A stretch of 28,070 bases of DNA, taken from positions 1-28,070 of the IMG/VR virus record IMGVR_UViG_2695420596_000005; one strand, written 5' to 3'. The position numbers and the translations under genes are program-made. A model generated the notes under the pieces. That model saw only the letters and a list, made by a program, of their open reading frames with translations, did no database searches and was not told the DNA's origin. This stretch comes from a virus (lineage: Duplodnaviria; Heunggongvirae; Uroviricota; Caudoviricetes). This document shows positions 1,221-22,567 of the stretch, in pieces (the first letter of the stretch is position 1; each line of letters begins with the position of its first letter).

Positions 1221-1226
1221 ATATAA

Positions 1227-1703: not shown

Positions 1704-1720
1704 ACCAACGTTTTCATGCT
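1695..1720. other. hix/gix-like recombination site B, inverted relative to site A
   Basis: Reverse complement reads AGCATGAAAACG-TT-GGTTTGGGGGAA; the cassette-proximal half-site is identical to site A. Confidence 0.55.
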
Positions 1721-2813: not shown

Positions 2814-2833
2814 TCTGACCATTAGCGGTTTTG
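2805..2833. terminator. Bidirectional hairpin terminator between convergent invertase and gpU genes
   Basis: AAAACCGCTAAT-ctgacc-ATTAGCGGTTTT, a perfect 12-bp stem flanked by A-run on one side and T-run on the other. Confidence 0.6.
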
Positions 2834-2839
2834 CGTTAA

Positions 2840-3334
2840 TCAAAACAGCCCTTTAACGGAGCTGGCCGCGCTGTTAAGGGATGATGTGACCTTATCTTTG
2901 AAGCCGGACAGCATATCACTGAACGATGAGGATTGCAGGCGCTCCCGCAAATCCTCATCACAGCGTTCAAGAGTCAGTGAAAATTCTATCTTTTTCGCCT
3001 TACCGTAGCGATCAAACTCGGAACGGGTCGTATTCGTTTCAGTCAGTACATACATGCCGTAAATCTGCCCGACACCATCAATCAGAGGCCAGGGGCGTCC
3101 TGTATATGCCTGCGTGGTCAGCAACGAAAGCGACACTTCGCCACCTGTAATTTCAGGATAAAGCACGCCGGAAAGCACGATGCGATCATCACCTGCGCCG
3201 ATATACTGCCAGCTTGCTGAACGGTTAACGCGTTCATTTTTCACATGCCGCCAGCTTTTGTTTTGCTGTAACTGCTGATGCGGCAATGTGCGCAGCTCAA
3301 AAACAAACATGCCGTAGATCATCATCATGGCCAT
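2840..3334 (-). CDS. U: Tail protein, P2 gpU-like
   Basis: 164 aa, MAMMMIYGMFVFELRTLPHQQLQQNKSWRHVKNERVNRSASWQYIGAG..., similar to remembered P2 gpU; lies directly downstream of the tape-measure gene. Confidence 0.8.
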   Translation of the reverse strand: MAMMMIYGMFVFELRTLPHQQLQQNKSWRHVKNERVNRSASWQYIGAGDDRIVLSGVLYPEITGGEVSLSLLTTQAYTGRPWPLIDGVGQIYGMYVLTETNTTRSEFDRYGKAKKIEFSLTLERCDEDLRERLQSSSFSDMLSGFKDKVTSSLNSAASSVKGLF

Positions 3335-3340
3335 GACTCC

Positions 3341-6148
3341 TCAATCTTTATCGTAAAAACTGCCACGTCCGGCACGGTCGCGTCGTTCCAATTCTGCCCT
3401 GACCATTTCACCGACCAGTTTCGCCAGTTCGCGGGGATTCTGCGTAACAACGTTATGCAGATGAACATGAATTTCACCGCCAAATCCGGAGACAACAGGC
3501 TCCCGGTTACGGGAAGTTGCAGGAACTGATGCCACTGGCGATCGTATGGCCTCCGCCACCGGGCGGGAGCTGGCCGCAACAACAGGGACCAGCGCCGGAG
3601 GCAGAGGAGTCGGGACCACGGGTGTGATGTTGATTGCGGAAGCAGGCTTACTGACCTGCGCAATCTTCCGCTCCTGCCACTCCCCACGAACAGCAAGTGC
3701 GCGGGGCAGATTCTTAAAGACAATATCGCCGGGGCCAATGCGTTTTTTCGTCTCATCAACCAGCTTACCTGTGTTATCAGCAATTTTGCTGAGTCTGCGT
3801 AGCGTACCGGTATTGCTGTCTGTGAGCGGTTTGTTGTCTTTGGGTTTATCACCTCCGGTGCCATTGCCATTTTCCACAGGCTTCGGCGGATTGATTTTCG
3901 CCAGGTCCCCCTGAAGCAAGGCAACCTTGTCCTGAAGAATGGCCGCACGCTGTGCGTCTTCGATTTTCTTGCGCGCCCTTTCCGCTTCATCCGGAAGGAC
4001 GCCAAGTTTTTCAAGTATCCACGCCAGCGTATCCAGTAGCATTTTTGCAGGCGTCAGAACAAGTTGTAACGCACCGCCAAGAACGTTACCGAATATCTCG
4101 CCAGCACTGGTACATTTATCCAGCGTTTCCTTGCTGGACTCCATCGGTGACAGCAGCGATTTAAACCAGTTAAACACCTGGCTGATCCCGCTTCCGATTG
4201 CGTCAAAAACAGGACCAAACCGTTCAAAGGTTTCGCGCAACGGGGCCAGCCTTTCCATAATCCCGCTGAACACCCCGGCAAAAAATGCCCTGATGGGATC
4301 CCAGTATTTCCAGATAAGAACGGCAGCTCCGGCAAGTGCAGCCACGATAAGACCAACCGGACTGAACAGCGCCCCGATAGCGCCTCCCAGTAAAGAAACG
4401 GAACCCGTCACCATTCCCCATAGTGCTGGCAGGACCCTGACAGCATTCATTGATCCGGTCAGGAGAGAAAAACCAAGACGCAGTTTTGCCAGCGGACCAG
4501 CAAGCACACCAATAGCCAGCGACAACGAGCCAACCGTTGCAGTCATTGCCAGCAACGCACCGCCTGCTATCAGTAGCTGGCGCGTCAGTGCCGGATGGGC
4601 CTGCGCCAGCGCCGTCACCCTTGATACCACCCGCGTGAGCCACTGCGTGACAGAACGCAGCGGACCGTCAATCAGATCTGCAATGCGGATGCGCAACCCT
4701 TCCCATGCACTGCCGAGTGATTTCAGATCGCCGTCAAGGTTGTTGGCCATAACCTTTGCTGTGCGTTCAGCCTCACCGCGCGCGCCTTCAAGTTCTTTTC
4801 TCAGTTTGGGTAAGGAACCGTCACCCGCTGCATCAACGAGCGCCATAAACGATGTGAAAGCCTCTTCTCCGGCAATGTCCTTAAAGAACGATACCCGGTC
4901 AACTTCCCCGTATTTGCGGGTGGCTTTATAAAGGTCGGCCAGCACATCCTCCATCGGGCGCATTTTGCCCCCGGCATCCGAGACGGACACGCCCAGCTCT
5001 TTCAGAGCTTCTGCCGCCGCCTTTGGCGGTGATGCCAGACGAGCCAGGCTGGCACGCATTGCCGTCCCGGCATCACTCCCTCTGATGCCCATATTCGCCA
5101 GCACGCCAGCCATCGCTGCGGCCTGCTCCAGCGATATTCCCAGCTTACCCGCCACCGGACCTGCATATTTCATGGTTTCGCCCAGTGCGCGAAGGTCAGT
5201 GTTGGTACGGGTAAACGCTGCGGTGAGTGTGTCACCGACCCGGTCCATCTGGTCAGCAGAAAGGCCGAACTGCGTCAGGATATTTGAGCCAATATCTGCC
5301 GTCTCGCCGAGATCCATACCGCCAGCCGTTGCCATGCTCAGCACTCCGGGAAGCGCAGCCTGAATGGCCTGCGGTGTGAAGCCAGCCATTGCAAGAAATG
5401 CCTGCCCACTGGCGGCATCGCCTGCGGTGAACTGCGTTTCAGAGCCAAGTTTTAACGCCTGCTCACGCAGCGCCTTAAACTGCGGGCTGTTCTGGTCGAT
5501 TCGCGTCAGCGCCTGAACGCGGGACATCTCTTTGCCGAACCCGATCGCGGGCTGCAAAAAACGCCCGGCAGCATAGCCGCCCGCCGCTGCCGCACCAATT
5601 GCCAGCGCACCACCTGTTTTCAGTTTTCCCGCGGTTTCCTGCGCGCGCGAATACCGCTCACGCGCCCGCGTTACACGCGCAAGCGCCTGCCGTTCGCGTT
5701 CAAGCTGGTTGTTGTACTGTTCGGTGCGTCTGATGGCCTGCTGGATGGTGTTATCGCTGCCTGTCAGGGAAATGCCGTGGCGTTTCAGCTCTCCGCCAAG
5801 TTCCCGCATTTTCTGAATTTCCCGTGTGCGCGATTCATTCAGGCGTTCAAGCCGGGTGCTTAACTGCTGCATCAGCTTTTGTTGTTTTTCGCTGAGCACT
5901 GTACCCGTGCGTTGTAACTGATTAAGAGCGTTAAGCTGGCGTCGTGCTTTCAATATGCCAGCATCCGCTTTACTGACAGCGTCACGGGCGCGCTCAAATG
6001 AACGCGCCTGACGCTCGAGATTTTTGATCGCCCCCTGCGTTCGCTGGATGGAGTCACCAAACTGCCCCATCAGGCGGCGGGCGTTTTCGGCAGGCCGGGT
6101 CAGCCTGTCAACGGCGCTGAAAGCGACCCGGATATCAAGAGTCTTCAT
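3341..6148 (-). CDS. T: Tail tape-measure protein, P2 gpT-like
   Basis: ~935 aa, Ala/Gly/Leu-rich with coiled-coil N-terminal part and hydrophobic glycine-rich central segment, positioned between E/E' and U. Start placed at ATG 6148 (MKTLDIRV); the tracked ORF begins at an in-frame GTG at 6184. Confidence 0.85.
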   Translation of the reverse strand: MKTLDIRVAFSAVDRLTRPAENARRLMGQFGDSIQRTQGAIKNLERQARSFERARDAVSKADAGILKARRQLNALNQLQRTGTVLSEKQQKLMQQLSTRLERLNESRTREIQKMRELGGELKRHGISLTGSDNTIQQAIRRTEQYNNQLERERQALARVTRARERYSRAQETAGKLKTGGALAIGAAAAGGYAAGRFLQPAIGFGKEMSRVQALTRIDQNSPQFKALREQALKLGSETQFTAGDAASGQAFLAMAGFTPQAIQAALPGVLSMATAGGMDLGETADIGSNILTQFGLSADQMDRVGDTLTAAFTRTNTDLRALGETMKYAGPVAGKLGISLEQAAAMAGVLANMGIRGSDAGTAMRASLARLASPPKAAAEALKELGVSVSDAGGKMRPMEDVLADLYKATRKYGEVDRVSFFKDIAGEEAFTSFMALVDAAGDGSLPKLRKELEGARGEAERTAKVMANNLDGDLKSLGSAWEGLRIRIADLIDGPLRSVTQWLTRVVSRVTALAQAHPALTRQLLIAGGALLAMTATVGSLSLAIGVLAGPLAKLRLGFSLLTGSMNAVRVLPALWGMVTGSVSLLGGAIGALFSPVGLIVAALAGAAVLIWKYWDPIRAFFAGVFSGIMERLAPLRETFERFGPVFDAIGSGISQVFNWFKSLLSPMESSKETLDKCTSAGEIFGNVLGGALQLVLTPAKMLLDTLAWILEKLGVLPDEAERARKKIEDAQRAAILQDKVALLQGDLAKINPPKPVENGNGTGGDKPKDNKPLTDSNTGTLRRLSKIADNTGKLVDETKKRIGPGDIVFKNLPRALAVRGEWQERKIAQVSKPASAINITPVVPTPLPPALVPVVAASSRPVAEAIRSPVASVPATSRNREPVVSGFGGEIHVHLHNVVTQNPRELAKLVGEMVRAELERRDRAGRGSFYDKD

Positions 6149-6396
6149 TGTCTGTATTCCCGCTGCGAAGTGCCGCCCGCTCACGCCAGCTAACCACTTC
6201 GCCGGGAGTCATCATGAAGATTTCGGCGGGCGACCAGTTAAAAATGGTGGCAATATCCGCCACCAGATCTTCGATGTGCTCAAAGCACACCAGGGTGATT
6301 ACGCTGCCGTCTCCTGCACGCTCTTCGCGCCAGAGTCTGGCTCGCTCATAAAATTTACAGCCACAGCGCACAACTGAATAAAATCGCGTGACGACA
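6135..6396 (-). CDS. E' extension in the -1 frame (putative E+E' frameshift product)
   Basis: An overlapping ORF in the -1 frame begins just 3' of an A7 run (T7 at 6396-6402 on the plus strand, codons ATT-AAA-AAA-ATG) at about codon 91 of E and runs to 6135. Confidence 0.45.
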
Positions 6397-6673
6397 TTTT
6401 TTTAATCATCACTTCATCCAGTTGTGGCGAGGTCACGCGAGGCAACAGCGTGAACATGGTATCCGCTTTCAGATTCAGCACATCAGACAGCGACAGACCA
6501 CGCAGGGATCCCGCCTGCTCAATAGCCCCGGTGATCTCCACATATGTGATTTTTTCGGCACCACGCTCAATTGGCCGGGAAAGTTTTACACCACGTTCGA
6601 CAGCCATATCCTCACCTGCCGTCACATCATCCGCTACGGTGTTATTCCGGGTTTCAGTATCGATATTTTTCAT
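6299..6673 (-). CDS. E: Tail assembly chaperone, P2 gpE-like (zero-frame product)
   Basis: 124-aa ORF with AAGGAG Shine-Dalgarno before ATG 6673, in the position between tube and tape-measure genes. Confidence 0.65.
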   Translation of the reverse strand: MKNIDTETRNNTVADDVTAGEDMAVERGVKLSRPIERGAEKITYVEITGAIEQAGSLRGLSLSDVLNLKADTMFTLLPRVTSPQLDEVMIKKMSSRDFIQLCAVAVNFMSEPDSGAKSVQETAA

Positions 6674-6728
6674 CAGTTGTCTCCTTTTCAGTCAGAGGCG
6701 ACGCACTGCGCCGCCTGCATATTACTTA

Positions 6729-7241
6729 TCAGCCAAGCCCGAGCGCGGAACGGATGCGATCGGGCACAATGTCCTTGCCGTCCTTCCGGTAAATGAAGTT
6801 CAGCAGGTCAATCTCCCACAACGGACGATCGTTAACACTCAGCTTGTAGTAGGTGTTTTTAATGGCGTAAGTGTGTGATGTGGCTTCGCCCTGTTTGGCT
6901 TCCCCCATATCAATTTCCGTCACACGTCCGCGCATTTCGACTTCATACAGGTCGCTTTCTGCATCGGTGTAATATTCACCCGCAAAACGCAGCAGCGTGC
7001 CGTCAATCGTGCCGCCATACTTAAGGAACAGCTCACGAACTGCGCCCCCCATGACAAAGCTCGCATCAAGCGCGGAGTCGTCCAGACCGAGATCAATACT
7101 TACCGCCCCCATCATGCCACCACCCCGGTAGCTGTCGGTTTTGCGCGTCAGCTTAGGCAGGGTGACGGACGTCACCTTACCCACTTCGTTTTCACCATCC
7201 ACAAACAGCGTAAAAAAGCGAAGATGTTTTGGCACAGCCAT
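6729..7241 (-). CDS. FII: Tail tube protein, P2 gpFII-like
   Basis: 170 aa, immediately downstream of the sheath gene; size and position match P2 FII. Confidence 0.8.
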   Translation of the reverse strand: MAVPKHLRFFTLFVDGENEVGKVTSVTLPKLTRKTDSYRGGGMMGAVSIDLGLDDSALDASFVMGGAVRELFLKYGGTIDGTLLRFAGEYYTDAESDLYEVEMRGRVTEIDMGEAKQGEATSHTYAIKNTYYKLSVNDRPLWEIDLLNFIYRKDGKDIVPDRIRSALGLG

Positions 7242-8425
7242 CAGGCACCTCCCAGCACCGCAAATGCGGGTTCAAAGTATTCATCAGTAAACGTCTGGTA
7301 AAGCTCCATGTCTTCCAGTGGCGGAACGGGCGTATATTTGTAGCGAATACGCACACGCCCCTGACGTAAATCCGTGGTGCTGTTATCCACCACGTCATAC
7401 CAGCACTCCGCGCCAATCAGTTTCCCGGCAGTCACCAGTGAATCCAGTTTTGCCCTGATGGCACTGATAACATCCTTCACGTTCGCAGGCGTCAGTGGAC
7501 TGTCGATGGTTTCAAACTGCGCTTCCGCAATTGAATCAGCCAGCACCTGTGCGGTTCGGGTATACACCTCAAAGATGTAGGCGTTCGTTTCCGGTGTGCG
7601 GTTGCCCCAGAAGCGGAACCCGTTGCGACGAATAATGGTCGTGATTTCTTTGTTGTTGAGGCTGTTGGCATCGCTGTCTTCGGCCTGCAACGACCAGAAC
7701 ACATGCCTCGACATCCCCAGCACATTTTTAACCGGAACGTTGGACAGTGATTTGTGCCAGCCCTGCTCATGGTCAATGTACGCACGAAGGCCGCACGCAT
7801 AGGCAGGCGCGGGGAACGTTTCGTTTTTGCCACTTTTCGGGTTGTAGGCGATGAAGTCCGGCCATAAGAGCATCACCTCACGTTCGTTGAATTTCTGGCG
7901 GTAGGTAATCGCATCAGCCATCGTGTCACAGCCATGACATGAGGCATACACAAACGCGCGCAGTTTACCCGCAATCACGCACAGGGATTTTGTCACCGCC
8001 TCCGTGTCCAGCTCCGGCGCGGCCAGAATACGCGGACGGTATCCGATGCTTTCATCCTGCTCTGCAACAAGCAGCGCATACATCCCCGTATAGCTGCCGT
8101 CAGATTCAGAACCACCGATAACCAGTTGATCCTGCGTCTTTCCGTCTTCTTCTTTGTGTTCAGCCACGCGAACGACGATCACCTTTGTGCTCACCTGGTC
8201 TGCGATAGCCTTAAGCGCACGATAAAGCGTCCCCGTTGTCCCGCATTTTCCCAGCACGTCATTGACGCGGGTCAGCAGTGTGGGCTTGTTCAGCGGGAAC
8301 AGCTTCGCGTCCGCATCATCCGCCGTTGCCACGATACCGATAACACTGGAATCAACATCATTAATCGCTGTTACCAGGTCGGTATTTTCCGTAACACGGG
8401 CACCATGAAAACGAGTTTCACTCAT
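7241..8425 (-). CDS. FI: Contractile tail sheath protein, P2 gpFI-like
   Basis: Start placed at MSETRFHGARV (ATG 8425, AAGGGG Shine-Dalgarno), giving ~394 aa, close to P2 FI size. The tracked ORF extends upstream to 8599 without a ribosome-binding site. Confidence 0.8.
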   Translation of the reverse strand: MSETRFHGARVTENTDLVTAINDVDSSVIGIVATADDADAKLFPLNKPTLLTRVNDVLGKCGTTGTLYRALKAIADQVSTKVIVVRVAEHKEEDGKTQDQLVIGGSESDGSYTGMYALLVAEQDESIGYRPRILAAPELDTEAVTKSLCVIAGKLRAFVYASCHGCDTMADAITYRQKFNEREVMLLWPDFIAYNPKSGKNETFPAPAYACGLRAYIDHEQGWHKSLSNVPVKNVLGMSRHVFWSLQAEDSDANSLNNKEITTIIRRNGFRFWGNRTPETNAYIFEVYTRTAQVLADSIAEAQFETIDSPLTPANVKDVISAIRAKLDSLVTAGKLIGAECWYDVVDNSTTDLRQGRVRIRYKYTPVPPLEDMELYQTFTDEYFEPAFAVLGGA

Positions 8426-8582
8426 AGCTTCAGCCCCTTGTATCCGTAAAATGATTCGGCAACAATCATCACCCACCACGCGCGTAATCTCACCCCTGCG
8501 CCGTTCTCCCGACCCGGCGACAACAAAAAGCAGTAACCCCCTCCGCACGCACATGCGACCATGCCGCACAGGGAGGGAACAG

Positions 8583-9683
8583 ATGACCGATACCACCATG
8601 CAATTGCTCAGTCAGGGCACAGACCCCGTGAAAATGCCGGATTTTGATATTCTCGCGGAGGGTAAAACGCTGTCAGGCGTGGCAGAGCGCCTGATGAGCC
8701 TGTCACTGACCGACAACCGGGGATTTGAGGCGGACCAGCTCACCATCACGCTGGATGATGCGGATGGTCAGTTGCAGCTACCGCCACGGGGCGCGCGCCT
8801 GACGGTTCTCATTGGCTGGAAAGGAGAACCGCTGACAGAAAAAGGCACTTACATTGTTGATGAAATCGCTCACGAAGGACCGCCGGACAGGCTGACTGTT
8901 TCAGCCAGAAGCGCAGATTTTCGGGATGAATTTAACGTTAAACGTGAGGTGTCCTGGCATGATGTGACCGTTGAGCGCGTGGTATCTGCCATCGCTCATC
9001 GGTACGGTCTGAAACCGCAAATCAGCGAAATACTGATGGATATCGAAATCGACCACGCCGACCAGACCGAAGAAAGCGACATGTCCTTCCTTACGCGCAT
9101 GGCGGAAATGCTGGGCGCAATCACCACGGTAAAAAGCGGTAATCTGTTATTCATCATGCCAGGCGGTCGCGTGAACGCACTGGGCCAGCCGTTGCCATCG
9201 TTCGCCATCACACGCAGCAGCGGCGATCGCCATCAGTTCCGCATTGCTGACCGCGAGGCGTATACGGGTGTACGCGCCTACTGGCTTGATCTTAATTACG
9301 GGAAAAAGAAAAAAGTCAGCGTGAAACGCCGCAAACCGAAAAAAGAGAAAAGCAGCAGCCGTGAAGGTGACTATATGGAAGGTGCGGAAGGCAACGTGTT
9401 TGTGTTACGCAAAACTTATCAGAACGAGCAGGCAGCAAGACGCGCAGCGGCGGCAAAATGGCAGCAGCTACAACGCGGAGCCGCATCATTTTCCATCACG
9501 CTGGCACGTGGACGAGCAGAACTCTACCCCGAAATGCATGGCACGGTAACAGGATTTAAAAGCGAGATTGATAATCAGGACTGGATCATTGCAAAAGCCG
9601 AGCACACCATTGATAACAGTGGCTTTACCACGCAGCTTGAGCTTGAAGCCAAAATCCCGGAATGGATAGCAGAAACAGAGTAA
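8583..9683 (+). CDS. D: Late tail gene D product, P2 gpD-like
   Basis: Start at MTDTTMQLLSQG (ATG 8583) preceded by GGGAGGG Shine-Dalgarno; ~366 aa; lies between FI and the ogr-like gene. Confidence 0.75.
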   Translation: MTDTTMQLLSQGTDPVKMPDFDILAEGKTLSGVAERLMSLSLTDNRGFEADQLTITLDDADGQLQLPPRGARLTVLIGWKGEPLTEKGTYIVDEIAHEGPPDRLTVSARSADFRDEFNVKREVSWHDVTVERVVSAIAHRYGLKPQISEILMDIEIDHADQTEESDMSFLTRMAEMLGAITTVKSGNLLFIMPGGRVNALGQPLPSFAITRSSGDRHQFRIADREAYTGVRAYWLDLNYGKKKKVSVKRRKPKKEKSSSREGDYMEGAEGNVFVLRKTYQNEQAARRAAAAKWQQLQRGAASFSITLARGRAELYPEMHGTVTGFKSEIDNQDWIIAKAEHTIDNSGFTTQLELEAKIPEWIAETE

Positions 9684-9877
9684 ACAACTTAGATGCATTA
9701 GCCCTGACATTTGCTAACGCGCTTACAGCAAGAATCATAACCAATCTGACAGCCTACCCGGTGTCAAAATCAGAAGAGCCTTACATTAGAATATGTTAAT
9801 TTGTAGCAAACAAATTTACACACAAATGATTACTGCTGAAATAGCCCCCATAAATGCCATGTCAAAGGATCCATGTT

Positions 9878-10543
9878 ATGAATATGCAAATTTTTATCGC
9901 ACCAGCAGCCACAGTTGCTGCAGTCTGCCTTGCTGCATATTTTGCTTTACGAAATGAACGTAAAAAGAAAGCACTTGAGATTAGAACAACTCAACTAGAT
10001 CGAATATCTGAGCTAGTAAACCGAGCATCTACCAATTTGATGCAATATACAGGTACTCTTGCCTCTATACTGGAAGCGCACGCCAAAGATAATTATCTAC
10101 CGAACAAAAAATTTGACATTAATGTAATTAGCAAATGGAAAGATTGCCTCGATGAGAGTGAGGTCTGGGCGATTGATATACAGCAACTAAGAACATGTCA
10201 GCACAGTCTGGAGTTTCATCGTGAAAAAGAATGGGCTGAATGGAAAAAAATAATTCCACCATTACTTGATAAAATTAACCAATTTTTTCTCATATCTAAG
10301 CCAGGGCAACCTGTTACGTTTATAAATGGCCAAAACAAAACAGCTGATGAACTACTTGTTTTCTCAAGATATTTGAGAAAACAAACAGCAGAAATTGAAT
10401 CAGTACGTCAGCTGTTACTTTCTCAAATGAGAGAGGAATTCATCGAGTTAACTAGCTTTGAACCTGTCACAATGTTTAGCTTATTTAAATCAATAAAGAA
10501 AAATGTCATGCAATTTTTCTGTATCAGTGCTCTTAAAAATTGA
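9878..10543 (+). CDS. Hypothetical membrane-anchored protein (AT-rich accessory gene)
   Basis: Start MNMQIFIAPAATVAAVCLAAYFAL gives one N-terminal hydrophobic helix followed by a charged ~200-aa domain. The region looks markedly AT-rich by eye. P2 has no gene between D and ogr. Confidence 0.6.
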   Translation: MNMQIFIAPAATVAAVCLAAYFALRNERKKKALEIRTTQLDRISELVNRASTNLMQYTGTLASILEAHAKDNYLPNKKFDINVISKWKDCLDESEVWAIDIQQLRTCQHSLEFHREKEWAEWKKIIPPLLDKINQFFLISKPGQPVTFINGQNKTADELLVFSRYLRKQTAEIESVRQLLLSQMREEFIELTSFEPVTMFSLFKSIKKNVMQFFCISALKN

Positions 10544-10558
10544 CGCTCTGTTGCAAGC

Positions 10559-10581
10559 AACCCCAGTGTTAAACTGGGGTT
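10559..10581 (+). terminator. Hairpin terminator candidate after the accessory gene
   Basis: AACCCCAGT-gttaa-ACTGGGGTT followed by ATTCTTGC. Confidence 0.45.
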
Positions 10582-10692
10582 ATTCTTGCTAAGAGACCTT
10601 TCTACGGCATCAGTAAACAAAACGAACTATCAGTTGGAGTCTGAGCAAGTTCAGCCTAAACTAGCGACAGCACTACGTTAAGGGAGGTCGCT

Positions 10693-10953
10693 ATGTTCCG
10701 TTGTCCGCTTTGTGGCGCATCTGCCCGTATCCGCACCAGTCGTCCGGAAAATGATTCAAACACCGTGCGGCAAAAGTATTACCAGTGTAACAACCTGGAA
10801 TGCGGCGTATGCTTCTCAACACTGGAAGCTTTCCATAAATTCACATCGAAACACGCCTCCGGCATCCACTCTTCAGAAGGTATCCCGTGGCATGAGCTGC
10901 CAGCTTCACACAGGGGAAACAATCAGATGAGCTTGCCTTTACCTCAGAATTAA
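10693..10953 (+). CDS. ogr: Zinc-finger late transcription activator, Ogr/Delta family
   Basis: MFRCPLCGASARIRTSRPENDSNTVRQKYYQCNNLECGVCFSTLEAF: CxxC...CxxxxC arrangement and similarity to P2 Ogr. Strong AAGGGAGG Shine-Dalgarno. Confidence 0.85.
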   Translation: MFRCPLCGASARIRTSRPENDSNTVRQKYYQCNNLECGVCFSTLEAFHKFTSKHASGIHSSEGIPWHELPASHRGNNQMSLPLPQN

Positions 10954-11092
10954 CAGGCAGAATTGCCGGAGTAACAAAAACGCGATAGATTACGCGCGGG
11001 TGCCTTTCGGCTGATGGTCGGAGGGAATACCCGAAGGCCAGATGTGGAAAGGCCCCGGAAAACATCTCTGTTTAACCGAGGCCCTAACCGCA

Positions 11093-12181
11093 TTACCTTG
11101 ACAAGTGAAAGGTTAGCGCCTCTCCGGAAAAGGAGCAAGTGCTTGTATGGGTCCACCACATATTGCAATTTTTATTCTCTTTTAAAATATATTCCACGGG
11201 CGTCATTAGTGCGAGCGCCTTGTGGGGTCTTTTGCTGTTATACAGCACCAGATATTCCGCCAGCTTCTGGTTAAATAGCGCCAGATCTTCAAAGAGTAAA
11301 ATCTCATTAAATTCAATAAACTGCTCTCTTAACGTCCGGTTAAAACGTTCACAGATAGCGTTCATTTTTGGCGTGTAGGGATAGGTCCAGAGGTGTTTGA
11401 TAGCGGCTTCCTGCAGCGTTTTGTCGAAGTTTCCCAGGAACTCTTTTCCGTTATCTGTGATTATCTGGCTGATACCGACCGGGAACAACCGGGCTGCGCG
11501 GCTGAAGAAGTGATTGACGATATCACTGTTGAGTGACGGCACAGCCAGCGCCAGCGCGTAATTGCTGCATTCGTCGATCATGGTGATGACATAGCGACGC
11601 AGTTCGCCCATTCTGAGCTCAATGGCGTCCATCCCAATGAGCTCACCTGTCTTTACCGGGCGGTAGTGCTTTGGCCTGCGGGGTTTGGCAGACCGCTTTT
11701 TGACAAGCAGTGCCTTCCCCCGCGATCCCAGACGCACAGGTATCATCCGCATTTTATCATGTGCGGCAGCGATCATTCTGCCGATGGTGGAAACACTCGG
11801 ACAGGCCAGATAGCGCTGTTCGCACCAGGGCTTCAGGCGAACAAAAATCTGCTCTTTACCGAGGTTCGGCAGCTCTGTCCTGAGGCGTCGAATCTCTTTC
11901 AGCACATCGGGATGCCAGTGTTTTTTTCGTCGCACCAGAGGTGCCTTACTGTGCGGGATTAGCCCCTCAGGTCCTTCCTTGTTCAGTAACTGACGCCACC
12001 AGTAAAGCGTGCGGCAGGACACGCCAAAGGCTTCAGAAGCTGCAGAAATACCGTGTTTATCCCAGAAGTGCAGAGCCTTCATTCTCATTGTTGCTATATC
12101 AGCCATCACTGAAAGCCTCAACGCATAATCGGCCGTTTGGTAGTACTTAGGATAGCCAACCATCAGATGCTGCATTTGCAT
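11093..12181 (-). CDS. DDE transposase (rve/integrase-core), IS481-family-like
   Basis: 362-aa ORF with N-terminal HTH region, ITDNGKEF and YxPxxN...E motifs typical of retroviral-integrase-type transposases. The last few codons probably read through into flanking DNA. Confidence 0.75.
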   Translation of the reverse strand: MQMQHLMVGYPKYYQTADYALRLSVMADIATMRMKALHFWDKHGISAASEAFGVSCRTLYWWRQLLNKEGPEGLIPHSKAPLVRRKKHWHPDVLKEIRRLRTELPNLGKEQIFVRLKPWCEQRYLACPSVSTIGRMIAAAHDKMRMIPVRLGSRGKALLVKKRSAKPRRPKHYRPVKTGELIGMDAIELRMGELRRYVITMIDECSNYALALAVPSLNSDIVNHFFSRAARLFPVGISQIITDNGKEFLGNFDKTLQEAAIKHLWTYPYTPKMNAICERFNRTLREQFIEFNEILLFEDLALFNQKLAEYLVLYNSKRPHKALALMTPVEYILKENKNCNMWWTHTSTCSFSGEALTFHLSR

Positions 12182-12216
12182 AGTGCAATCTCCCCTTACT
12201 TATCCGGAGGCAATTA
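11110..12216 (-). mobile_element. Insertion sequence, IS481-family-like (~1.1 kb)
   Basis: Single DDE transposase ORF. The right boundary is set where identity to the tfa copy at 940-1220 begins (12217/12218). The left boundary is approximate, set from an imperfect terminal inverted repeat (GTTAGCGCCTCTCCGGAAAAGG versus TAATTGCCTCCGGATAAGTAAGG). Confidence 0.6.
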
Positions 12217-12217
12217 A

Positions 12218-12499
12218 CCATACGATAAATGGGATGGTGAAAAATGGGTGACAGATACTGAGGCACAACATCGTGCTGCAGTAGAAGCGGCAGAAACCAA
12301 GCGCCAGTCACTGGCTGATGCGGCAATGGCTTCCATAAGTCTGATTCAGTTGAAGTTGCAGGCCGGGCGGAAGTTGACGCAGGCAGAAACCACCCGGCTT
12401 AATGCCGTGCTGGATTATATAGACGCGCTGAACGCAATGGATATAAACATGGCACCAGATATCAACTTGCCGGAAATACCACTGGCAGCAGCCAGTTGA
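12218..12499 (+). pseudogene. Truncated tail-fibre assembly gene (3' remnant only)
   Basis: Identical to the 3' part of the tfa at 609-1220 from nt ~940 onward; identity starts abruptly at the IS end, leaving the last ~83 codons without the native start. Confidence 0.75.
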
Positions 12500-12505
12500 A
12501 TATAA

Positions 12506-14119
12506 CTAAGCCGCCCTCACGATATAGTTAAATGCAATATTGCGGGGGCGGGTTTCACTACCACCTGTGTTACCAATACTTCCTCGTGAATGAAGCGTTG
12601 GTGATGGAATCAAACTCCCTCCTGTATTTGTGGCATCAAGCCCCCTGCCTTGCGTATATGTTTTTTTGAAAATTGTGGCCAACTCCCATTCATCCTTTGT
12701 GTCATATCCATCGTTAGCTACAACAATATGGCGGTGTTTTTCCAACATCCCGTTTTGAATGCTCAATAAAGCGCGTGCCGCATCAATTCCTCGCCCATCA
12801 TCCCAGCCACGGATAAATTCACCGCGTAAGTCTGGTAATTTATTGGTGGGGTAAGCCCTTGCCAGTTTTGGGTACTTTTCAGAAGAAAATGCTGCGCCGT
12901 TACATTTCAGCCATCCCGTTGGCGGCGTGGCTGAGGGCCATGGAACGGGCACACCAACGGGCAGTGCAGAGCCTTCCCCCAAACCAAGGTAATCAAGAAC
13001 TCCCTGAGTGCTGGTTTTACCAAGAATGGCACGTCCAACACTTGTCAACGCGGTTAACGCGGCACGATCTGCCCCTGTAAAATATGGGAGTTTATCTGCT
13101 GATGTAGCAAGCTCTGCCAGCGCCGTCAGGGTGGCATCCTTCGGTTGCTTACCCGCAAGCGCGTTAGTCATGGTGGTCGCAAAATTCGGGTCATTGCCCA
13201 GCGCCGCAGCCAGTTCGTTCAGCGTGTTCAGTGCATCAGGTGACGAATCTACAAGTGCGGCAATCGCGGCCATAACGAAAGCCGTGCTTGCGATCTGGGT
13301 ACTATTAGTCCCCTGTGGCGCTGTTGGTGTTGTTGGCGTTCCGGTCAGTGCCGGGCTGTTTAATGGTGCTTTCTTGTTCGTTTCATCCATTACCGCCTTA
13401 ACAGCTTTTGGTGTCGCTGCCAGCGTTTCAGACGTGCTGTTCGTGGCGCTACTGAGCTGAACAATTCCTTTTTGTGTAGTGGTGGCGTTCTGGGCGGTAT
13501 ATTTCCCGTTAGCCAGGTCATATGCAGCCTTAACCGCTTTCGGTGTTGCGGCCAGTGTTTCTGATTCACTGTTAATTGCACTGCTTAACTGAGTAAAACC
13601 TTTTACGGTCAGCGAGGCGTCCGGGTGACGTCGTGACTGTTCGTGCTCTGAGATTTTATCATCCACATATTTGCGGGTTGCCAGAACCACAGACGGGTCG
13701 ATTTTCAGCGTGATGGCTTCGGTGTTCGTGACAACCAGAATCATGCGGATAGTCTGGGTGCGTCCACTGCCTTCCTGCAACTGCGGTTTGTACGTTTCCG
13801 GGCAGTTTGCCACCGCAATGAGTACACCTTCATCATCATAAAGACCAATCTCACGGATCCAGAATCCTCCCTCGTTTTCAGGGATGATTTGCTCCGCAAT
13901 AATCTGGCTCTGATTGTTAGGGTCAACACTCAGAAGATTCAGCGGTGCAATGCGTTTCTGGTTAATCAGTTTTGTTTGTGCAGGGTCTGGTGTTGGTAAC
14001 ACACCATTTGCATCACCAACGGCCATTTGCGTCAGATTCAGCTTACTGCCGAGCATCGTCGCGTTAGCCAGTCGTGCCGCGCCCTGATTAGTCAGAATGG
14101 CGTAGTATTTCACTGTCAT
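12506..14119 (-). CDS. H: Tail fibre protein, P2 gpH-like N-terminus with the Sv2 C-terminal domain
   Basis: 537 aa. N-terminal two-thirds similar to remembered P2 H (AVANCPETYKP, EHEQSRRHPDASLTVKGFTQLSS, TPKAVKAVMDETNKKAPLNSPALTGTPT). C-terminal 158 aa identical to cassette 1227-1703. Confidence 0.9.
   Translation of the reverse strand: MTVKYYAILTNQGAARLANATMLGSKLNLTQMAVGDANGVLPTPDPAQTKLINQKRIAPLNLLSVDPNNQSQIIAEQIIPENEGGFWIREIGLYDDEGVLIAVANCPETYKPQLQEGSGRTQTIRMILVVTNTEAITLKIDPSVVLATRKYVDDKISEHEQSRRHPDASLTVKGFTQLSSAINSESETLAATPKAVKAAYDLANGKYTAQNATTTQKGIVQLSSATNSTSETLAATPKAVKAVMDETNKKAPLNSPALTGTPTTPTAPQGTNSTQIASTAFVMAAIAALVDSSPDALNTLNELAAALGNDPNFATTMTNALAGKQPKDATLTALAELATSADKLPYFTGADRAALTALTSVGRAILGKTSTQGVLDYLGLGEGSALPVGVPVPWPSATPPTGWLKCNGAAFSSEKYPKLARAYPTNKLPDLRGEFIRGWDDGRGIDAARALLSIQNGMLEKHRHIVVANDGYDTKDEWELATIFKKTYTQGRGLDATNTGGSLIPSPTLHSRGSIGNTGGSETRPRNIAFNYIVRAA
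12974..12999. other. hix/gix-like recombination site within the H gene (reverse complement identical to site A)
   Basis: TTCCCCCAAACC-AA-GGTAATCAAGAA is the exact reverse complement of 134-159. Confidence 0.55.
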
Positions 14120-14724
14120 GCGTTTACTCTCAGATTATCAATTAAATGAATGGCTGGGGCAGGGAAATAATCCCCTTCGACAATAATGGACTCCGGGGTG
14201 TAGGGATAAACCGTCAGGGCATCGCCGTGATAGCATCCCGTACCAACGAAAATCTTTCCGTTCACACTCAGGCTGATCGCCAGCCCCGTCAGATGGCGAC
14301 TTACTGGTTTTGCATCCGCAATAAGGCGCTCAAGTTCCTGATACATTTCATCGGTGATGCCCTGATCAAGTACTCCGACAACAATGCGAAATGTTCCCGG
14401 TTCCTCGTTGAGTTGCCACCACTCCTTTACTTCAATCAGGTAGCCGAGAGGCTCCACGGCTCTTCGCAGTGCGCTGATGGTCCCTTTGTGTCGGTGTATC
14501 AGCCATGCATCACGAATCACCTGTCGCTTTGTCTCTTCCGGCCAGTTGCGATCCCAGCGGTCAACGGAAAATGCCCAGGCGAGATAAGGCAGCAGATGCA
14601 CCGGGCAGGTGTCCGGCGACCACAGCGTGTTGAGGTCTACCGGAATGTCTGTAATGCGTGTTCCGACGGCTTCGGCACAACGCATGAAATTGCTGGCTGA
14701 TGGTGGTAACAACGAATTACTCAT
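14116..14724 (-). CDS. I: Baseplate protein, P2 gpI-like
   Basis: Start taken at MSNSLLPPSASN (14724); similar to remembered P2 I (LLPYLAWAFSVDRWD, RLIADAKPVSRHL). Overlaps J stop and H start. Confidence 0.8.
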   Translation of the reverse strand: MSNSLLPPSASNFMRCAEAVGTRITDIPVDLNTLWSPDTCPVHLLPYLAWAFSVDRWDRNWPEETKRQVIRDAWLIHRHKGTISALRRAVEPLGYLIEVKEWWQLNEEPGTFRIVVGVLDQGITDEMYQELERLIADAKPVSRHLTGLAISLSVNGKIFVGTGCYHGDALTVYPYTPESIIVEGDYFPAPAIHLIDNLRVNA

Positions 14725-15613
14725 TGCGTCCACCTTCGCTGATGGTGAATGACTCACAGCGCGCCGCCTGTATGTCGCTGATGGCCATATTCTGTGTGGG
14801 TTCGATTATCTCCACGCGTTGCACACCGTGCACATGCAGTGCGGCAGCAATGGCGGACAACGCCACGTCCTGACCGATAAGCCCCTGCTCAGCCAGCCAC
14901 TTCCTGAACGACGATTCAGCCGCGGCCAGAATAGGTTCGGATTCCGGGCCGGGGTAAAAGTACAGTTTTGCATTCAGCCGCCATGTCACGATTCTGGCGC
15001 TCTGTACGGTCAGGCGGTCGGCCACCGGGCGGGTATCCTCTGCATTCAGAACGGCGCGAACGGTATTAAGCAACGCCTCCGTTGCTGTGCCGTCGCCTTC
15101 AGTGGACAGGATGGAAACCGTCACACAGGCCGGAGACGGGCTGATGGCCCGCGCATCACGCACCAGACCGCTGGCGCTGCGTGCAAAATACTCGTATGCA
15201 CCTGACGGACCAGCAACACTCAGGCCGTCATACGCCCGTTGCGCCCGCAATCTCAGCGAGGTGTCACTCTCCATCACCGCGTCGGTGGTATCCGTTGCCG
15301 GAGTGATAACCAGGCGCTTTGTGTTCATATTGCCCGCGAGGTTGTCCAGGTTTGTCCCTGAACCGTGGCTTAACATGCAGGCGCGAGCGCCCTCGTTAAC
15401 CCGCTGGCGTAACAGCATTTCACGAAAAGACATGGTTTGAGCGATAACGTTCAGGGGTTCCGATTCCAGCTCCAGCGCGGCGGAGACGGCTTCACGCTGT
15501 TCGGCAGGATAGGACGCAATCATCATGGCCTTTGTGTCAGCCAGAATTGCCTCAAAATCAGGCTCCGCGATGATGGCGGGTTCCGGTAACTGGGAAAGGT
15601 CAACAGCAGGCAT
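14717..15613 (-). CDS. J: Baseplate assembly protein, P2 gpJ-like
   Basis: 298 aa, between W and I in conserved order. Confidence 0.8.
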   Translation of the reverse strand: MPAVDLSQLPEPAIIAEPDFEAILADTKAMMIASYPAEQREAVSAALELESEPLNVIAQTMSFREMLLRQRVNEGARACMLSHGSGTNLDNLAGNMNTKRLVITPATDTTDAVMESDTSLRLRAQRAYDGLSVAGPSGAYEYFARSASGLVRDARAISPSPACVTVSILSTEGDGTATEALLNTVRAVLNAEDTRPVADRLTVQSARIVTWRLNAKLYFYPGPESEPILAAAESSFRKWLAEQGLIGQDVALSAIAAALHVHGVQRVEIIEPTQNMAISDIQAARCESFTISEGGRNE

Positions 15614-15616
15614 GAT

Positions 15617-15967
15617 TTACTCTCTCAGCGTGATGGTTAATTCAACATTCTGCATGGTCTGCATGACAGTGCCCGACAGCGTCACCCCGGCGCGGCCTCC
15701 TGCCTTCCAGACAACGTCGATAGCGTCCAGGGCAATGCGGGGTTCCCATCGTGTCAGCGCAATCACGGCAGCACTCATGCATTGCAGACGCGTGGTGTTA
15801 TTCATGGGTTCGTCAATCAAATCAGGCACAAGGCTGCCATATTCCCGTCGCATAACCCGGCTTGCCAGCGGGGTGGTCAGGATGTCCCTGACTGACTGTT
15901 TCAGGTGCTCCATATCGTTCAGGTTTCCCGTTCCGTCCGGGTTCATTCCTGTGTAGCGGGTTGTCAC
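15617..15967 (-). CDS. W: Baseplate wedge protein, P2 gpW-like (gp25 family)
   Basis: 116 aa, size and position as P2 W. Confidence 0.75.
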   Translation of the reverse strand: MTTRYTGMNPDGTGNLNDMEHLKQSVRDILTTPLASRVMRREYGSLVPDLIDEPMNNTTRLQCMSAAVIALTRWEPRIALDAIDVVWKAGGRAGVTLSGTVMQTMQNVELTITLRE

Positions 15968-16545
15968 TGCGGGCCTCCTGTCGAATAGCTGCCACCTTTA
16001 ACGCCACCGTGTTTATGCGTATGCACTGTGATGCCGTTTGAGGTGAAATTGCCGCCGCTGTGCGTGATATTGCCGCTCATCTTTCCCCCTTTTGTGACGT
16101 CAAGCGTCGCCGTTCTCAGAAGGTCTGTGCATTCCACGACGGGCGTATCCAGTGTCACGCTGACGGATGCCTGCAGGGTGGCTGTTTTCATGCCGCTAGC
16201 GCTCAGTGCGCCTGCGTCCGCGTCGTAGCGGAACACCGCGCCATCCGGCGCGCTGACCACGATTTCTTTCAGGCTTTTGCCGGGGGCCGGAATAGCATCA
16301 CTCCACAGGCTGCCAATTATCATGGCGGTTTCCGGGTTGCCGCCAATGCAGGCAATTACCACCTGTTCGCCTGGTGATGGCGGCAGCCACACATTGAAGG
16401 CTCCCGCGCGCGTGGTGTTCCAGCGCAGCCAGCCTGTTTCCAGTTCGCCGCTGCGAACGCGCACGCGCCAGGACTTCTCATCAACTTCAGAGATGATCCC
16501 GGTGCGAATGATGTTGCTCAGCAGTCGCATGAGTTCTGCGCTCAC
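15964..16545 (-). CDS. V: Baseplate spike/assembly protein, P2 gpV-like
   Basis: 193 aa immediately upstream of W with overlapping stop/start. Confidence 0.75.
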   Translation of the reverse strand: MSAELMRLLSNIIRTGIISEVDEKSWRVRVRSGELETGWLRWNTTRAGAFNVWLPPSPGEQVVIACIGGNPETAMIIGSLWSDAIPAPGKSLKEIVVSAPDGAVFRYDADAGALSASGMKTATLQASVSVTLDTPVVECTDLLRTATLDVTKGGKMSGNITHSGGNFTSNGITVHTHKHGGVKGGSYSTGGPQ

Positions 16546-16575
16546 CGTACAGCCTCCGCAATCCGGCCCAGCACC

Positions 16576-16692
16576 GTGTTATAAATCAGGCGCTCATCTG
16601 CCTGGCTGATACCCAGCAGCTCACGTACCGGGTATCGCCATCATCGGTATCGGTGATGTCGTCCTCTGCGGGTCCGGGGTTGGTTCTGGCAA
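16576..16692 (-). CDS. Small acidic ORF (38 aa) in the M-V gap
   Basis: ATG at 16692 preceded by CAGGAGTG Shine-Dalgarno; encodes MSMVARTNPGPAEDDITDTDDGDTRYVSCWVSARQMSA. Not in the supplied track (too short). Confidence 0.2.
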
Positions 16693-16803
16693 CCATACTC
16701 ATGGGGTTCACTCCTGAAAAAATCGGGCGGTGGGTGCGCGGTGTAAGCGGTCACGGAGTCAAACCGGAACACCGCGCACGCCGCCCGCTGACGGGGTCAG
16801 TCG

Positions 16804-17604
16804 TTAACCGCGCTTCGCCTTCTGCGTCGCGGTGGTTTTTCGTGTTGCAGGCTTCCGCGTTGTCTTTTTACTTTTGCTGCTTTCGTCCTGCGCCTGCGGT
16901 GTGCTGGCATCTTCTGGTGCGGCTGCGGAATCGGCTTTTTTCAGGGCGCGGGAAAGGGTTGCAATCTCGCGTTTCACACCTGCGTTCGGGTTCAGGTGCA
17001 TTGCTTCGCGCAGCAGCTTCAGTGACAGGGCCATGCTGTCCGCATCACTCAGGCCACGGCGGGCAAAGGCGCACGCTTTGCATAATTTGGCGCGCACTTC
17101 GTCCGGCATGTCCTGGTCGGTGACAATCTCCCGGAGGGTGTCCAGTGGTTCGATAAAGGCGGACAAATCCGCGTCGGCATCCGTCCCGGCCTGCGTCAGT
17201 ACCGGATTACAGATTTCTTCGGTCAGTACCGTGGCAGCAGTACGGCCAAAGTTATCCGGCATGATGAGGTTGTGACGGACCACATACGCACCAATACGCA
17301 ACGCCAGCGGAAGATCGCCACAGTCAATCGCCCACACCATCAGCGTGGCAATCACTTCATCCTGCTGCCCGCCGTCAGCCTCCAGCGTTCCCTCAATCCA
17401 GCCGGAAAAATCCGGCAACAACTCTTTTTTGATGGCGGCTTTCGCGCTTCTGGCCTGTACGCCCTTAAGCCGGGCCTGTGCCAGACGCAGACGATACAGC
17501 ACCTCTTCATGCGCGGTACGCGCGGCGTGGTCCACGCCTTCATTCGCCCGGCCTGCGCGCTGTGCCATCACGTTCTGCCAGTGTTGCTGTGCAGGAGTAA
17601 TCAT
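16804..17604 (-). CDS. M: Terminase small (endonuclease) subunit, P2 gpM-like
   Basis: 266 aa with lysine/arginine-rich C-terminal tail and DMPDEVRAKL motif remembered from P2 M; downstream of the capsid gene. Confidence 0.8.
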   Translation of the reverse strand: MITPAQQHWQNVMAQRAGRANEGVDHAARTAHEEVLYRLRLAQARLKGVQARSAKAAIKKELLPDFSGWIEGTLEADGGQQDEVIATLMVWAIDCGDLPLALRIGAYVVRHNLIMPDNFGRTAATVLTEEICNPVLTQAGTDADADLSAFIEPLDTLREIVTDQDMPDEVRAKLCKACAFARRGLSDADSMALSLKLLREAMHLNPNAGVKREIATLSRALKKADSAAAPEDASTPQAQDESSKSKKTTRKPATRKTTATQKAKRG

Positions 17605-17649
17605 TTTTTCTCTCCGTTACAGGCGGGCATGATGCCCGCCGTGAGTTGA

Positions 17650-18702
17650 TTAGCTGTCGGCGAACTTCAGGCCAGTAACCATCGCGCACTTGCCATAGTC
17701 TTCAACGACATAAGCGTCATTGATGGACTGGTAGGTGGCGATGCGGTTGTATTCCGGCTCGTCTTTCATCAGGCGACGCATTGAACCTTTCTGCCAGTAA
17801 ATCGACAGGTTGTTGAACGAGGTGATCAGCATCGTTGCATCCGGGAAGAACGGTGCAAGGAACACGCCCAGCCCGCCAATGGTGCGCGATGACAGGATGA
17901 GCTGCCCGGCAAGTAATTCCGCATTGGGATTCTGGCCGCTGATGCTGTTCAGCACGGGCAGACGCAGCGAGTTAAACAGGTTGCGCCCCATAATCACCAC
18001 AAGGTCGTCAGCTTCCTTGTGCCATTCATCCAGCAGGGATGAACGCGCGTCCTGTACCAGTGCATCAGCGTTCGCATACTTACCCGCGTGCGCCACGGTG
18101 TTGTCCATGTTGCGGGAGGTCAGCGTCACGTCATTCATAACGCGTTCGCTGGCGTCGGTTCTGATGTGCTCCAGCCATCCCACGTTAACGTCCTGAAGCA
18201 GCTTGTTGGTGCTGAAGTTGGACTCATCCGCGTGAGACGTGCCGTTGAAACCGATCATGATGCGGTCAAGCGCCACCTGCCGGGCAATCTGTGCGCTGAT
18301 GCGGGACTGAAAATCAGGATGTGCCGCCCAGGCATCAAGCTGCGGATATGAAATAAACGTGTCGTAGTTCACCTGTTCGCACTGGTATTTGCGGTTTTTC
18401 AGATCAACCACGTTATTCGGGTTACGGCGTTTTGTGCCGTCATAACCGGTATTCGTGCGTGCAATTGGCCCGGTGGTGTCCAGGAGGATTTTTTCGCCTT
18501 TCTGGTCGGTCACGCCGATCACGTTAATTCTTTTTGTAAATTCGGTGCTTTCCTTTGAGGCGTTTCCAAAACGCTGCTGCACCGAGGGTTCCACGGTAAA
18601 TCGCGATACCAGTGCGGAAACCGGAATATTATTAAGCGACGCCTGCTGCGCCATATAGCAACCCAGCTTGTTGCGGGTAATATCTGACATCACCAGATTC
18701 AT
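17650..18702 (-). CDS. N: Major capsid protein, P2 gpN-like
   Basis: 350 aa; FTVEPSV, IMIGFNG, MLITSFNNLSIYW, YVVEDY motifs align with remembered P2 N. Confidence 0.9.
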   Translation of the reverse strand: MNLVMSDITRNKLGCYMAQQASLNNIPVSALVSRFTVEPSVQQRFGNASKESTEFTKRINVIGVTDQKGEKILLDTTGPIARTNTGYDGTKRRNPNNVVDLKNRKYQCEQVNYDTFISYPQLDAWAAHPDFQSRISAQIARQVALDRIMIGFNGTSHADESNFSTNKLLQDVNVGWLEHIRTDASERVMNDVTLTSRNMDNTVAHAGKYANADALVQDARSSLLDEWHKEADDLVVIMGRNLFNSLRLPVLNSISGQNPNAELLAGQLILSSRTIGGLGVFLAPFFPDATMLITSFNNLSIYWQKGSMRRLMKDEPEYNRIATYQSINDAYVVEDYGKCAMVTGLKFADS

Positions 18703-18725
18703 AAAAAATTTGCTCCTTTGTCTTA

Positions 18726-19562
18726 TCAGAAGTCAGCCAGCTGGTCGGAGGCTGCACCTGTTGCGGTGAACCGGTTCTGCGGATCGCCGTCCTGCGTGCG
18801 CAGTTTTTCCTTCAGTGCTGCCAGCTCTGTGGTCAGTGACGTAATTTTCTGGCGGTCCTGCTGATGGCGGGTTTCCAGCACATTAAAACGGTCGATAATG
18901 TCGGCCTGTGACGTTGCGACGCCTTCCACCGCTTCCTGAATACGGGAAAAACTGGCGTCATCCGCTTTGCGGCCACGGCCAATAATCCCCATTACGCGGT
19001 TAAACCACTGGGTGCCTTCTTCCTGGCGTTGTTCTGCCATTTCGATGATTTCAGACTCGATGGCTTCGGAGATAAGCGGCGCTTCACCCTGGATACTGTT
19101 GAACGTCATCACCGCCTGACGTTGCTGTGCCGTGAATTTCAGGCGCTCAGTGCCCAGGCTTGCCGGGGTGTCGGTCATCGCCAGCCCGACCAGATAGGCG
19201 CGCCCGTTAACGGAGAACTGCGGGTGCAGTTCGATACTGGAATAGATTTTCTTGCCGTCCGCGACAAGCTGCTTCATGCGCTCGGTCGGTTCGATTTCTG
19301 CATACAGCGCAGTACGTCCGGCCAGCGGACCTTCCGTAATGTCTTCCGTACTCAGTGCGGTGACATCGCCCATTGCGGAAAATTCGCTTGACGGGCATGG
19401 CGAGAGATAGTGCTCAACGTTCACGCGGGCAGCGTAAACATCCGGGTTGAAGTTCTCGGCGGCTTCACGCAGATGCACCGGACTGATTTCACGGCCATCA
19501 ACAGTTGATCCGGAGACAGCCACGCGAAACTTTTTGCGGGATGTCTTTTTTTCATTAGCCAT
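18726..19562 (-). CDS. O: Capsid scaffolding protein, P2 gpO-like
   Basis: Start placed at MANEKKTSRKKFRVAVSG (ATG 19562, GAGGGG Shine-Dalgarno); similar to the remembered P2 O N-terminus and central YLVGLAMTDTPASLGTE. Confidence 0.8.
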   Translation of the reverse strand: MANEKKTSRKKFRVAVSGSTVDGREISPVHLREAAENFNPDVYAARVNVEHYLSPCPSSEFSAMGDVTALSTEDITEGPLAGRTALYAEIEPTERMKQLVADGKKIYSSIELHPQFSVNGRAYLVGLAMTDTPASLGTERLKFTAQQRQAVMTFNSIQGEAPLISEAIESEIIEMAEQRQEEGTQWFNRVMGIIGRGRKADDASFSRIQEAVEGVATSQADIIDRFNVLETRHQQDRQKITSLTTELAALKEKLRTQDGDPQNRFTATGAASDQLADF

Positions 19563-19716
19563 AGTTTTTGCCCCTCTGACTGGTTCTTCAGTCATGATGG
19601 CAAAGCGTAACAGGCTGATACAAAGGGCTTTTGTTGTAAGAAAACGGCCAGAACAGGGGGTTAAGGAGAACAGTTTCGCGCGCGGGTAATCTTCCTGTAA
19701 TTACTCAGGGGGAGCA

Positions 19717-22514: not shown

Positions 22515-22542
22515 CGCGCTTCGCTTGTCTGCTGCTTCGTCG

Positions 22543-22567
22543 GGGCATAAAAAATTTATGCCCCGAC
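22543..22567 (+). terminator. Hairpin downstream of portal gene
   Basis: CGGGGCAT-aaaaaattt-ATGCCCCG; no clear U-tract, so terminator function is uncertain. Confidence 0.35.

Follow-up and report, generated by a model that had tools for sequence, protein, structure and literature searches.

The junction between an IS481-family element and a truncated copy of the gene tfa is most probably the product of a simple IS insertion on one side and of a scaffolding artefact at position 12216 on the other, and we put the probability of this reading at roughly 0.7. Positions refer to the window, by which we mean the whole stretch of 28,070 nucleotides that was analysed. The multi-copy IS would have entered a preferred CAA-N5 site in a hok leader at the right end of a P88-like prophage, duplicating 5 bp, and the tfa sequence behind it would belong to a different contig. 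The biology is that of a common E. coli IS at a recurrent site, and nothing points to a new mechanism.

The window corresponds to the start of the draft scaffold CXZG01000006.1 (GCA_001283165.1), in which the contig position equals the window position plus 1. Base 12216, given as A in the window, is an N in CXZG01000006.1, and this is the sole difference over 21,614 compared bases (and again over 20,117 bases). The join as given reads GGAGGCAATT-x-ACCATACGATAAATGG, where x is base 12216. Since this base is an N in the public record, the junction between the IS and tfa is a scaffold join and not read-through sequence. The features that determine how the join has to be read are the following.

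12216, no strand: placeholder base at a scaffold gap, N in the public record
12217 to 12987, plus strand: exact second copy of window 938-1708, 771 bp with 0 mismatches, beginning right after the N
609 to 1220, plus strand: intact tfa of 203 amino acids, which crosses 937/938 without a break

The duplicated stretch behind the N consists of the 3´ 283 bases of tfa up to the stop codon (12217-12499) and of the tail-fibre cassette Hv-b. Another exact duplicate is found at the scaffold end, where window 1-182 is a 100% inverted copy of 12951-13132, part of the constant part of the tail-fibre gene H, and where a reading frame (the constant part of H fused to cassette Hv-a) is open at window position 1. 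An N at the join, a 771-bp exact duplicate starting from this N and a 182-bp exact duplicate at the scaffold end are together what is expected of a scaffolding artefact. The gap at 12216 accounts at once for the lack of a target duplication, for an IS that seems truncated and for a tfa that is cut short. Furthermore, the intact tfa on the same scaffold makes a truncation of tfa by a clonal event at 938 impossible, unless the prophage has been partly duplicated. The initial annotation had described the right end of the IS as abutting the truncated tfa, which is true of the letters as given, but the join is an N and the IS terminus is absent. The placeholder A also introduces a stop codon into a 110-amino acid ORF that spans the junction.

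The join was not seen elsewhere. This IS was not found next to tfa in complete E. coli genomes by megablast, an N-tolerant junction 35-mer and the pattern "IS end, 0-30 nt, tfa" were not found in IMG/VR, and the exact junction 35-mer was not found in species-representative genome contigs. The Logan assembly of run ERR124658, which comes from the same isolate, matches the window with 100% identity from 26702 down to 12958, which confirms the right-hand contig. The Logan contig ends inside the 37-bp crossover repeat of the tail-fibre region and supports neither the join between IS and tfa nor anything else to the left of H.

The element itself is already known; it is a common E. coli insertion sequence and there is nothing new about it. 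Of 5,426 complete E. coli genomes, 1,420 contain it, and a single genome may have as many as 38 copies (IAL7255, for instance, has 37). Its IS481-type transposase ORF (362 amino acids, 11093 to 12181, minus strand) is a single uninterrupted frame, with the Pfam domains rve (3e-11), rve_3 (3.5e-14), HTH_32 and HTH_28 in its product. The NCBIfam IS481 model NF033577 matches with 221.4 bits (cut-off 224) over profile positions 2-283 of 284, and the runner-up family is IS3 with 98 bits. The identical protein is named "IS481 family transposase" in RefSeq (e.g. WP_001178387.1; E. coli genomes and IncF plasmids). An rve-type DDE core with an N-terminal HTH in one ORF without programmed frameshift, a length of about 1.1 kb, terminal inverted repeats starting with TGT and a short target duplication, the latter taken from other copies, complete the picture. 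On these structural grounds the element is assigned to the IS481 family, the only miss being the curated HMM cut-off, by 2.6 bits. The earlier description as an IS481-family-like element is thus supported by the Pfam domains, the NCBIfam score, the RefSeq name and the full-length copies.

The transposase ORF has no stop codon of its own within the IS and ends in whatever flank the IS enters, and copies are annotated with 348 to 372 amino acids depending on the flank. In the window, the final 16 codons and the stop codon (11093-11143, 51 nt) are flanking phage hok leader and lie outside the IS.

To define the ends of the element, full-length copies were taken from 15 loci in complete E. coli chromosomes and plasmids (L001, L002, L019-L025 and L054-L059), which is the comparison with other genomic copies that had been proposed for this purpose. 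The IS is exactly 1,096 bp long in 15 of 15 copies (TGTATGGG…CTTACACA). The termini, TGTATGGGTCCACCACATATTGCAATT... and ...AATTGCAATATCTCTGTGAACTTACACA, are imperfect inverted repeats of about 27 bp of the TGT...ACA type, and the repeats start with TGTATGGGTCC... and TGTGTAAGTTC... on the two sides. A perfect 5-bp target duplication was found in 14 of the 15 copies, and the triplet CAA is located immediately 5´ of the 5-bp duplication in all 15, so that the target can be written as CAA-N5. Measured against these copies, the element in the window comprises the following parts.

11144 to 12215, minus strand: visible part of the IS, 1,072 of 1,096 bp, with 100% identity to many plasmid copies over this range
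11144 to 11170, no strand: intact left terminal inverted repeat TGTATGGGTCCACCACATATTGCAATT, whose partner in full-length copies is TGTGTAAGTTCACAGAGATATTGCAATT
11139 to 11143, no strand: GTGCT, left copy of the 5-bp target duplication, with the invariant CAA 5´ of it at 11136-11138

The left IS terminus is intact at 11144, with GCAA-GTGCT before it, whereas position 11093 is the stop codon of the transposase ORF and not the start of the IS. On the side upstream of the transposase gene, the IS ends at 12215 (...GGAGGCAATT), 24 bp short. The limits of 11093-12216 given for the element in the initial annotation therefore have to be replaced: the left end is 11144, and 12215/12216 is not an IS end. 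The 24 terminal bases that are missing here, GCAATATCTCTGTGAACTTACACA in full-length copies, were not found anywhere in the window. A second IS end was likewise not found in the window, the left repeat alone being present, and neither the hok coding sequence nor the 3´ part of hok was found anywhere in it. The partner of GTGCT would lie beyond the gap, so that the target duplication is not visible in the window. It had been stated that no direct repeat is evident at the boundaries; none flanks 11093-12216 as given, but GTGCT precedes the actual left end and its partner is expected behind the N. An IS-associated deletion or inversion, as put forward initially, finds no basis in these data, since no complete IS end is located on foreign DNA and the two sides are joined by an N; moreover, neither a second IS end nor the 3´ part of hok was found in the window, and tfa persists in intact form at 609-1220.

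The left flank of the element was already recognised as sequence downstream of ogr, and this is correct: it is the ogr-hok interval up to the hok leader.

10693 to 10953, plus strand: ogr, late-gene activator, next to the insertion on its upstream side (domain annotation)
10954 to 11143, plus strand: ogr-hok intergenic region and hok/mokW leader, intact to within 5 bp of the hok start codon

The IS sits downstream of ogr and 5 bp upstream of the hok/mokW start codon, at a site that is empty in phage P88 (GGAGCAAGCGCTATGTCGC; GGAGCAAGCGCT-ATGTCGC). A megablast search against complete E. coli genomes returned the identical junction of ogr and IS in eight genomes (H1-H8). The contig collection lists the exact 362-amino acid product, the C-terminal tail of which is specific for the flank, in 62 indexed blocks. 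Among the matches listed, ten of ten contigs continue from the IS end ...CTTACACA into GTGCT-ATG (hok), followed by ihfA and pheT. The arrangement GTGCT, IS, GTGCT-ATGTCGC is thus found in 11 assemblies (the ten contigs and L001), always at this site and in this orientation. At the ogr-hok site of other genomes the IS therefore appears as a simple insertion with a clean GTGCT duplication, and this site is a recurrent hot spot of the IS in P88-like prophages. The initial annotation had named a clean target duplication with tfa sequence on both sides as the finding that would contradict a rearrangement; the clean duplication exists in the form of GTGCT, but in every resolved copy at this site it is hok sequence that lies on both sides.

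The IS is absent from the ogr-hok site of the closest relatives by D protein, including the E2348/69 prophage, and the insertion is therefore probably recent or independent in this isolate. Judging from its position, the IS probably separates the gene for the Hok toxin from its leader, and an effect on hok expression may be expected.

Insertions beside hok genes recur among the sampled copies: in nine of the 15, the next gene downstream encodes a toxin of the hok family (hok/mokW in phages, hok in chromosomes, or hok/hokD in IncF plasmids). The insertions on the hok side are often within the GGAG Shine-Dalgarno sequence or the leader. Homologous hok leaders have been entered independently, with the duplications GTGCT, GCGTT, GACAT, GGAGA and GGAGG. 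Together with these repeated hits on hok leaders, the CAA-N5 rule would, if not already described, make a modest case of an IS specialised on toxin leaders.

Judged by its sequence, the window is P2-family prophage DNA of the P88 (Xuanwuvirus) type. Region 2220-11143 is collinear, on the plus strand, with P88 26983-34927 and contains the invertase, U, T, E, FII and FI (minus), then D, a 221-amino acid gene and ogr (plus), and reaches to the hok/mokW leader. Region 12217-22972 is P88 in reverse, with H, I, J, W, V, M, N and O (minus), followed by P and Q (plus). The order in P88 and in more than 30 related prophages is H, tfa with silent C-terminal cassettes, the serine invertase, and U to FI on one strand, followed on the other strand by D, a variable gene, ogr and hok, and then by the chromosome. 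The opposed blocks FI-U and D-ogr were considered as a rearrangement and rejected, being the normal order in P88 and all relatives. The inverted segment postulated earlier dissolves in the same way: the gene blocks follow the normal P88-type order, together with a tail-fibre segment that is inverted by a DNA invertase. The components of the tail-fibre region are the following.

12506 to 14119, minus strand: tail-fibre gene H (constant part plus Hv-b), identified by Pfam, converging on the tfa fragment
1 to 2813, no strand: multi-cassette invertible tail-fibre segment with serine invertase
1 to 609, plus strand: constant part of H fused to Hv-a, component of the invertible segment
1227 to 1703, minus strand: Hv-b cassette, component of the invertible segment
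1714 to 2199, minus strand: Hv-c cassette, component of the invertible segment
2214 to 2813, plus strand: serine invertase, with Resolvase and HTH_7 domains reported for the homologous gene in relatives

The crossover region common to the cassettes has a core of the ACCTTGGTTT type and is located at 146-182, 1672-1708, about 2111-2147 and 12951-12987; the shared sequence is ...ACCTTGGTTTGGGGGAAGG.... Among P88-like relatives tfa is found in either direction. At least nine genomes (L014, L015, L016, L018, L040, L042, L044, L045 and L047) carry an identical 537-amino acid H followed by an oppositely oriented full tfa, so that the convergence of H and tfa at 12499/12506 represents one of the ordinary states of the invertase system. 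The same finding led us to reject this convergence as an abnormality. A Din-type invertible segment explains both the convergence and the presence of repeats that confounded the assembly. The closest relative, L014, shows 99.8-99.98% identity and becomes collinear with the window when the 12.2-kb left contig is turned round and the segment inverted as well. Related prophages contain two to five cassettes in many permutations, and tfa points away from H in some of the states.

Outside of the tail-fibre region, the prophage differs from P88 and L014 by a 2.9-kb deletion at 16629-16637, the junction of which shows a 9-bp microhomology. The deletion has taken out the 3´ part of L together with X, the holin and endolysin genes, lysB/C, R and S, and with this loss, which includes the lysis genes, the prophage is defective. 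The deletion is also present in the independent Logan assembly of ERR124658, and its junction was not found in any complete E. coli genome searched.

Two regions of cargo were observed in addition. Region 23019-26302 (minus) encodes a subtilase-like protein (734 amino acids, Peptidase_S8) and an AAA ATPase (360 amino acids), which match IetS (1e-41) and IetA (4e-89), respectively, in PADLOC; this IetA/IetS-like defence pair is flanked by the portal gene on one side and by the prophage's early region on the other. The ORF at 9854-10543 (221/229 amino acids) occupies a variable cargo slot between D and ogr, which in relatives contains PIN_4, DUF3800, DUF2971 or HxsD plus radical-SAM genes. The 221-amino acid protein found in this slot has no match in Pfam or PADLOC.

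It might also be possible that the adjacency in the scaffold is real, although we consider this rather unlikely. A second IS copy would then have inserted into the tail-fibre region, followed by recombination between the IS copies or by another IS-associated event, either clonally with a partial duplication or in a subpopulation, and the gap would hide the last 24 bp of the IS and a short stretch of tfa. Contig ends that are joined with a minimal gap usually reflect read-pair links, and a scaffolder normally requires such pairs. In addition, the IS is an active, multi-copy element in E. coli, the prophage is defective already, and a consensus-like target, ACAA-CCACT, is located at 916-924, 14 bp upstream of the start of the right contig. 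However, tfa would be split by recombination between two IS copies. The scaffold nevertheless contains it in intact form, along with a second Hv-b and another piece of the constant part of H, and a real adjacency therefore needs either a duplication or a mixed culture. Moreover, a simple inversion predicts Hv-a followed by the 5´ part of tfa to the left of Hv-c, whereas Hv-b and then the full tfa are found there. The position beside the gap also breaks the CAA-N5 rule, which holds for 15 of 15 copies, and the adjacency was seen in no other assembly searched. That the scaffold link reflects real molecules, in which a new IS in the hok leader rearranged with the invertible tail-fibre region and generated an inverted, partly duplicated tail module in the isolate or in part of the culture, is in our view unlikely.

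A direct fusion, in which the IS is truly shortened by 24 bp and was joined to the middle of tfa by illegitimate recombination, the N being one ambiguous base, is highly improbable: the given sequence does read straight through with a single base undetermined, but a single N at the join is a scaffolding mark (assemblers are not known to emit an N inside read-supported sequence), the join shows no microhomology, the 771 bp behind the N are a second copy of sequence on the same scaffold, tfa is intact at 609-1220, and the junction 35-mer is missing from species-representative genome contigs and IMG/VR. A truncated IS fused to tfa, the product of either illegitimate recombination or an exchange between two IS copies, was dropped on account of the N in the public record and the 771-bp exact duplicate.

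We thus favour the simple insertion with a scaffolding artefact at 12216, which may have come about as follows. The short-read assembler would have resolved neither the IS nor the invertible segment. The left contig would run into the IS and stop 24 bp before its end, and the right contig would run from H across the invertase crossover into the invertible segment and stop in the middle of tfa, thereby duplicating sequence of the left contig. A scaffolder would then have joined these two contigs of the short-read draft by one N, leaving the 12.2-kb left contig mis-oriented or mis-joined. Most likely, the IS truly continues with the 24 bp missing here, followed by GTGCT, hok, ihfA and pheT, which is the order seen in all resolved relatives. 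The right flank of the IS in this isolate and the reason for the mis-join are what we infer. Some observations speak against an artefact. The joining of the IS end to the tfa end would normally have required read pairs, so that some molecules with this adjacency may exist. The left contig breaks off 24 bp short of the IS terminus and not at it, contrary to what a simple repeat collapse would give. The prophage is not pristine, with one confirmed structural change (the 2.9-kb deletion from L to S), and the closest relatives by D protein are without the IS at the ogr-hok site.

The case calls for caution, since a single placeholder base in the position of an N made an ordinary IS insertion look like a rearrangement junction. 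Windows from draft scaffolds that lie beside multi-copy IS elements and invertible segments will give false junctions, and silent placeholders for N may recur elsewhere.

Prophages with the IS at the ihfA/pheT site, such as those of E. coli AH19B041 (CP196316.1), MB06101 and O103:H2 PV16-126, are identical to the window in insertion point, orientation and left flank, and ogr plus IS show 98.6-99.8% identity between the window and prophages of this type. They contain the complete IS followed by GTGCT-hok-ihfA, whereas in the window the IS sequence stops at the N. The backbone of the window prophage, in contrast, is closest to E2348/69-type prophages, which are without the IS. The invertible segment resembles the Din-family (Gin/Cin/Pin/Min-type) segments of Mu, P1, e14, p15B and P2-like phages such as P88, in which a serine invertase is likewise located beside alternative C-terminal tail-fibre cassettes and tfa and the crossover sites have a core of the ACCTTGGTTT type; with three cassettes sharing one tfa, the segment in the window has the multiple-inversion arrangement.

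The element shares with known enterobacterial IS481-family elements a single DDE transposase with HTH and without frameshift, a length of about 1.1 kb, TGT...ACA termini with imperfect repeats of about 27 bp, a 5-bp duplication and a marked target preference. It differs from known family members in an HMM score just below the cut-off and in a transposase ORF that has no stop codon inside the element. A relative from Klebsiella plasmids and phage KpF5 is about 76% identical. In E. coli K-12, IS elements that inactivate chromosomal hok loci have been described. The element described here is similar to these insertions into hok/sok-type loci in that the IS is located directly upstream of a hok-family gene, but it belongs to a different IS family and uses a sequence-specific CAA-N5 target in the Shine-Dalgarno and leader region of hok.
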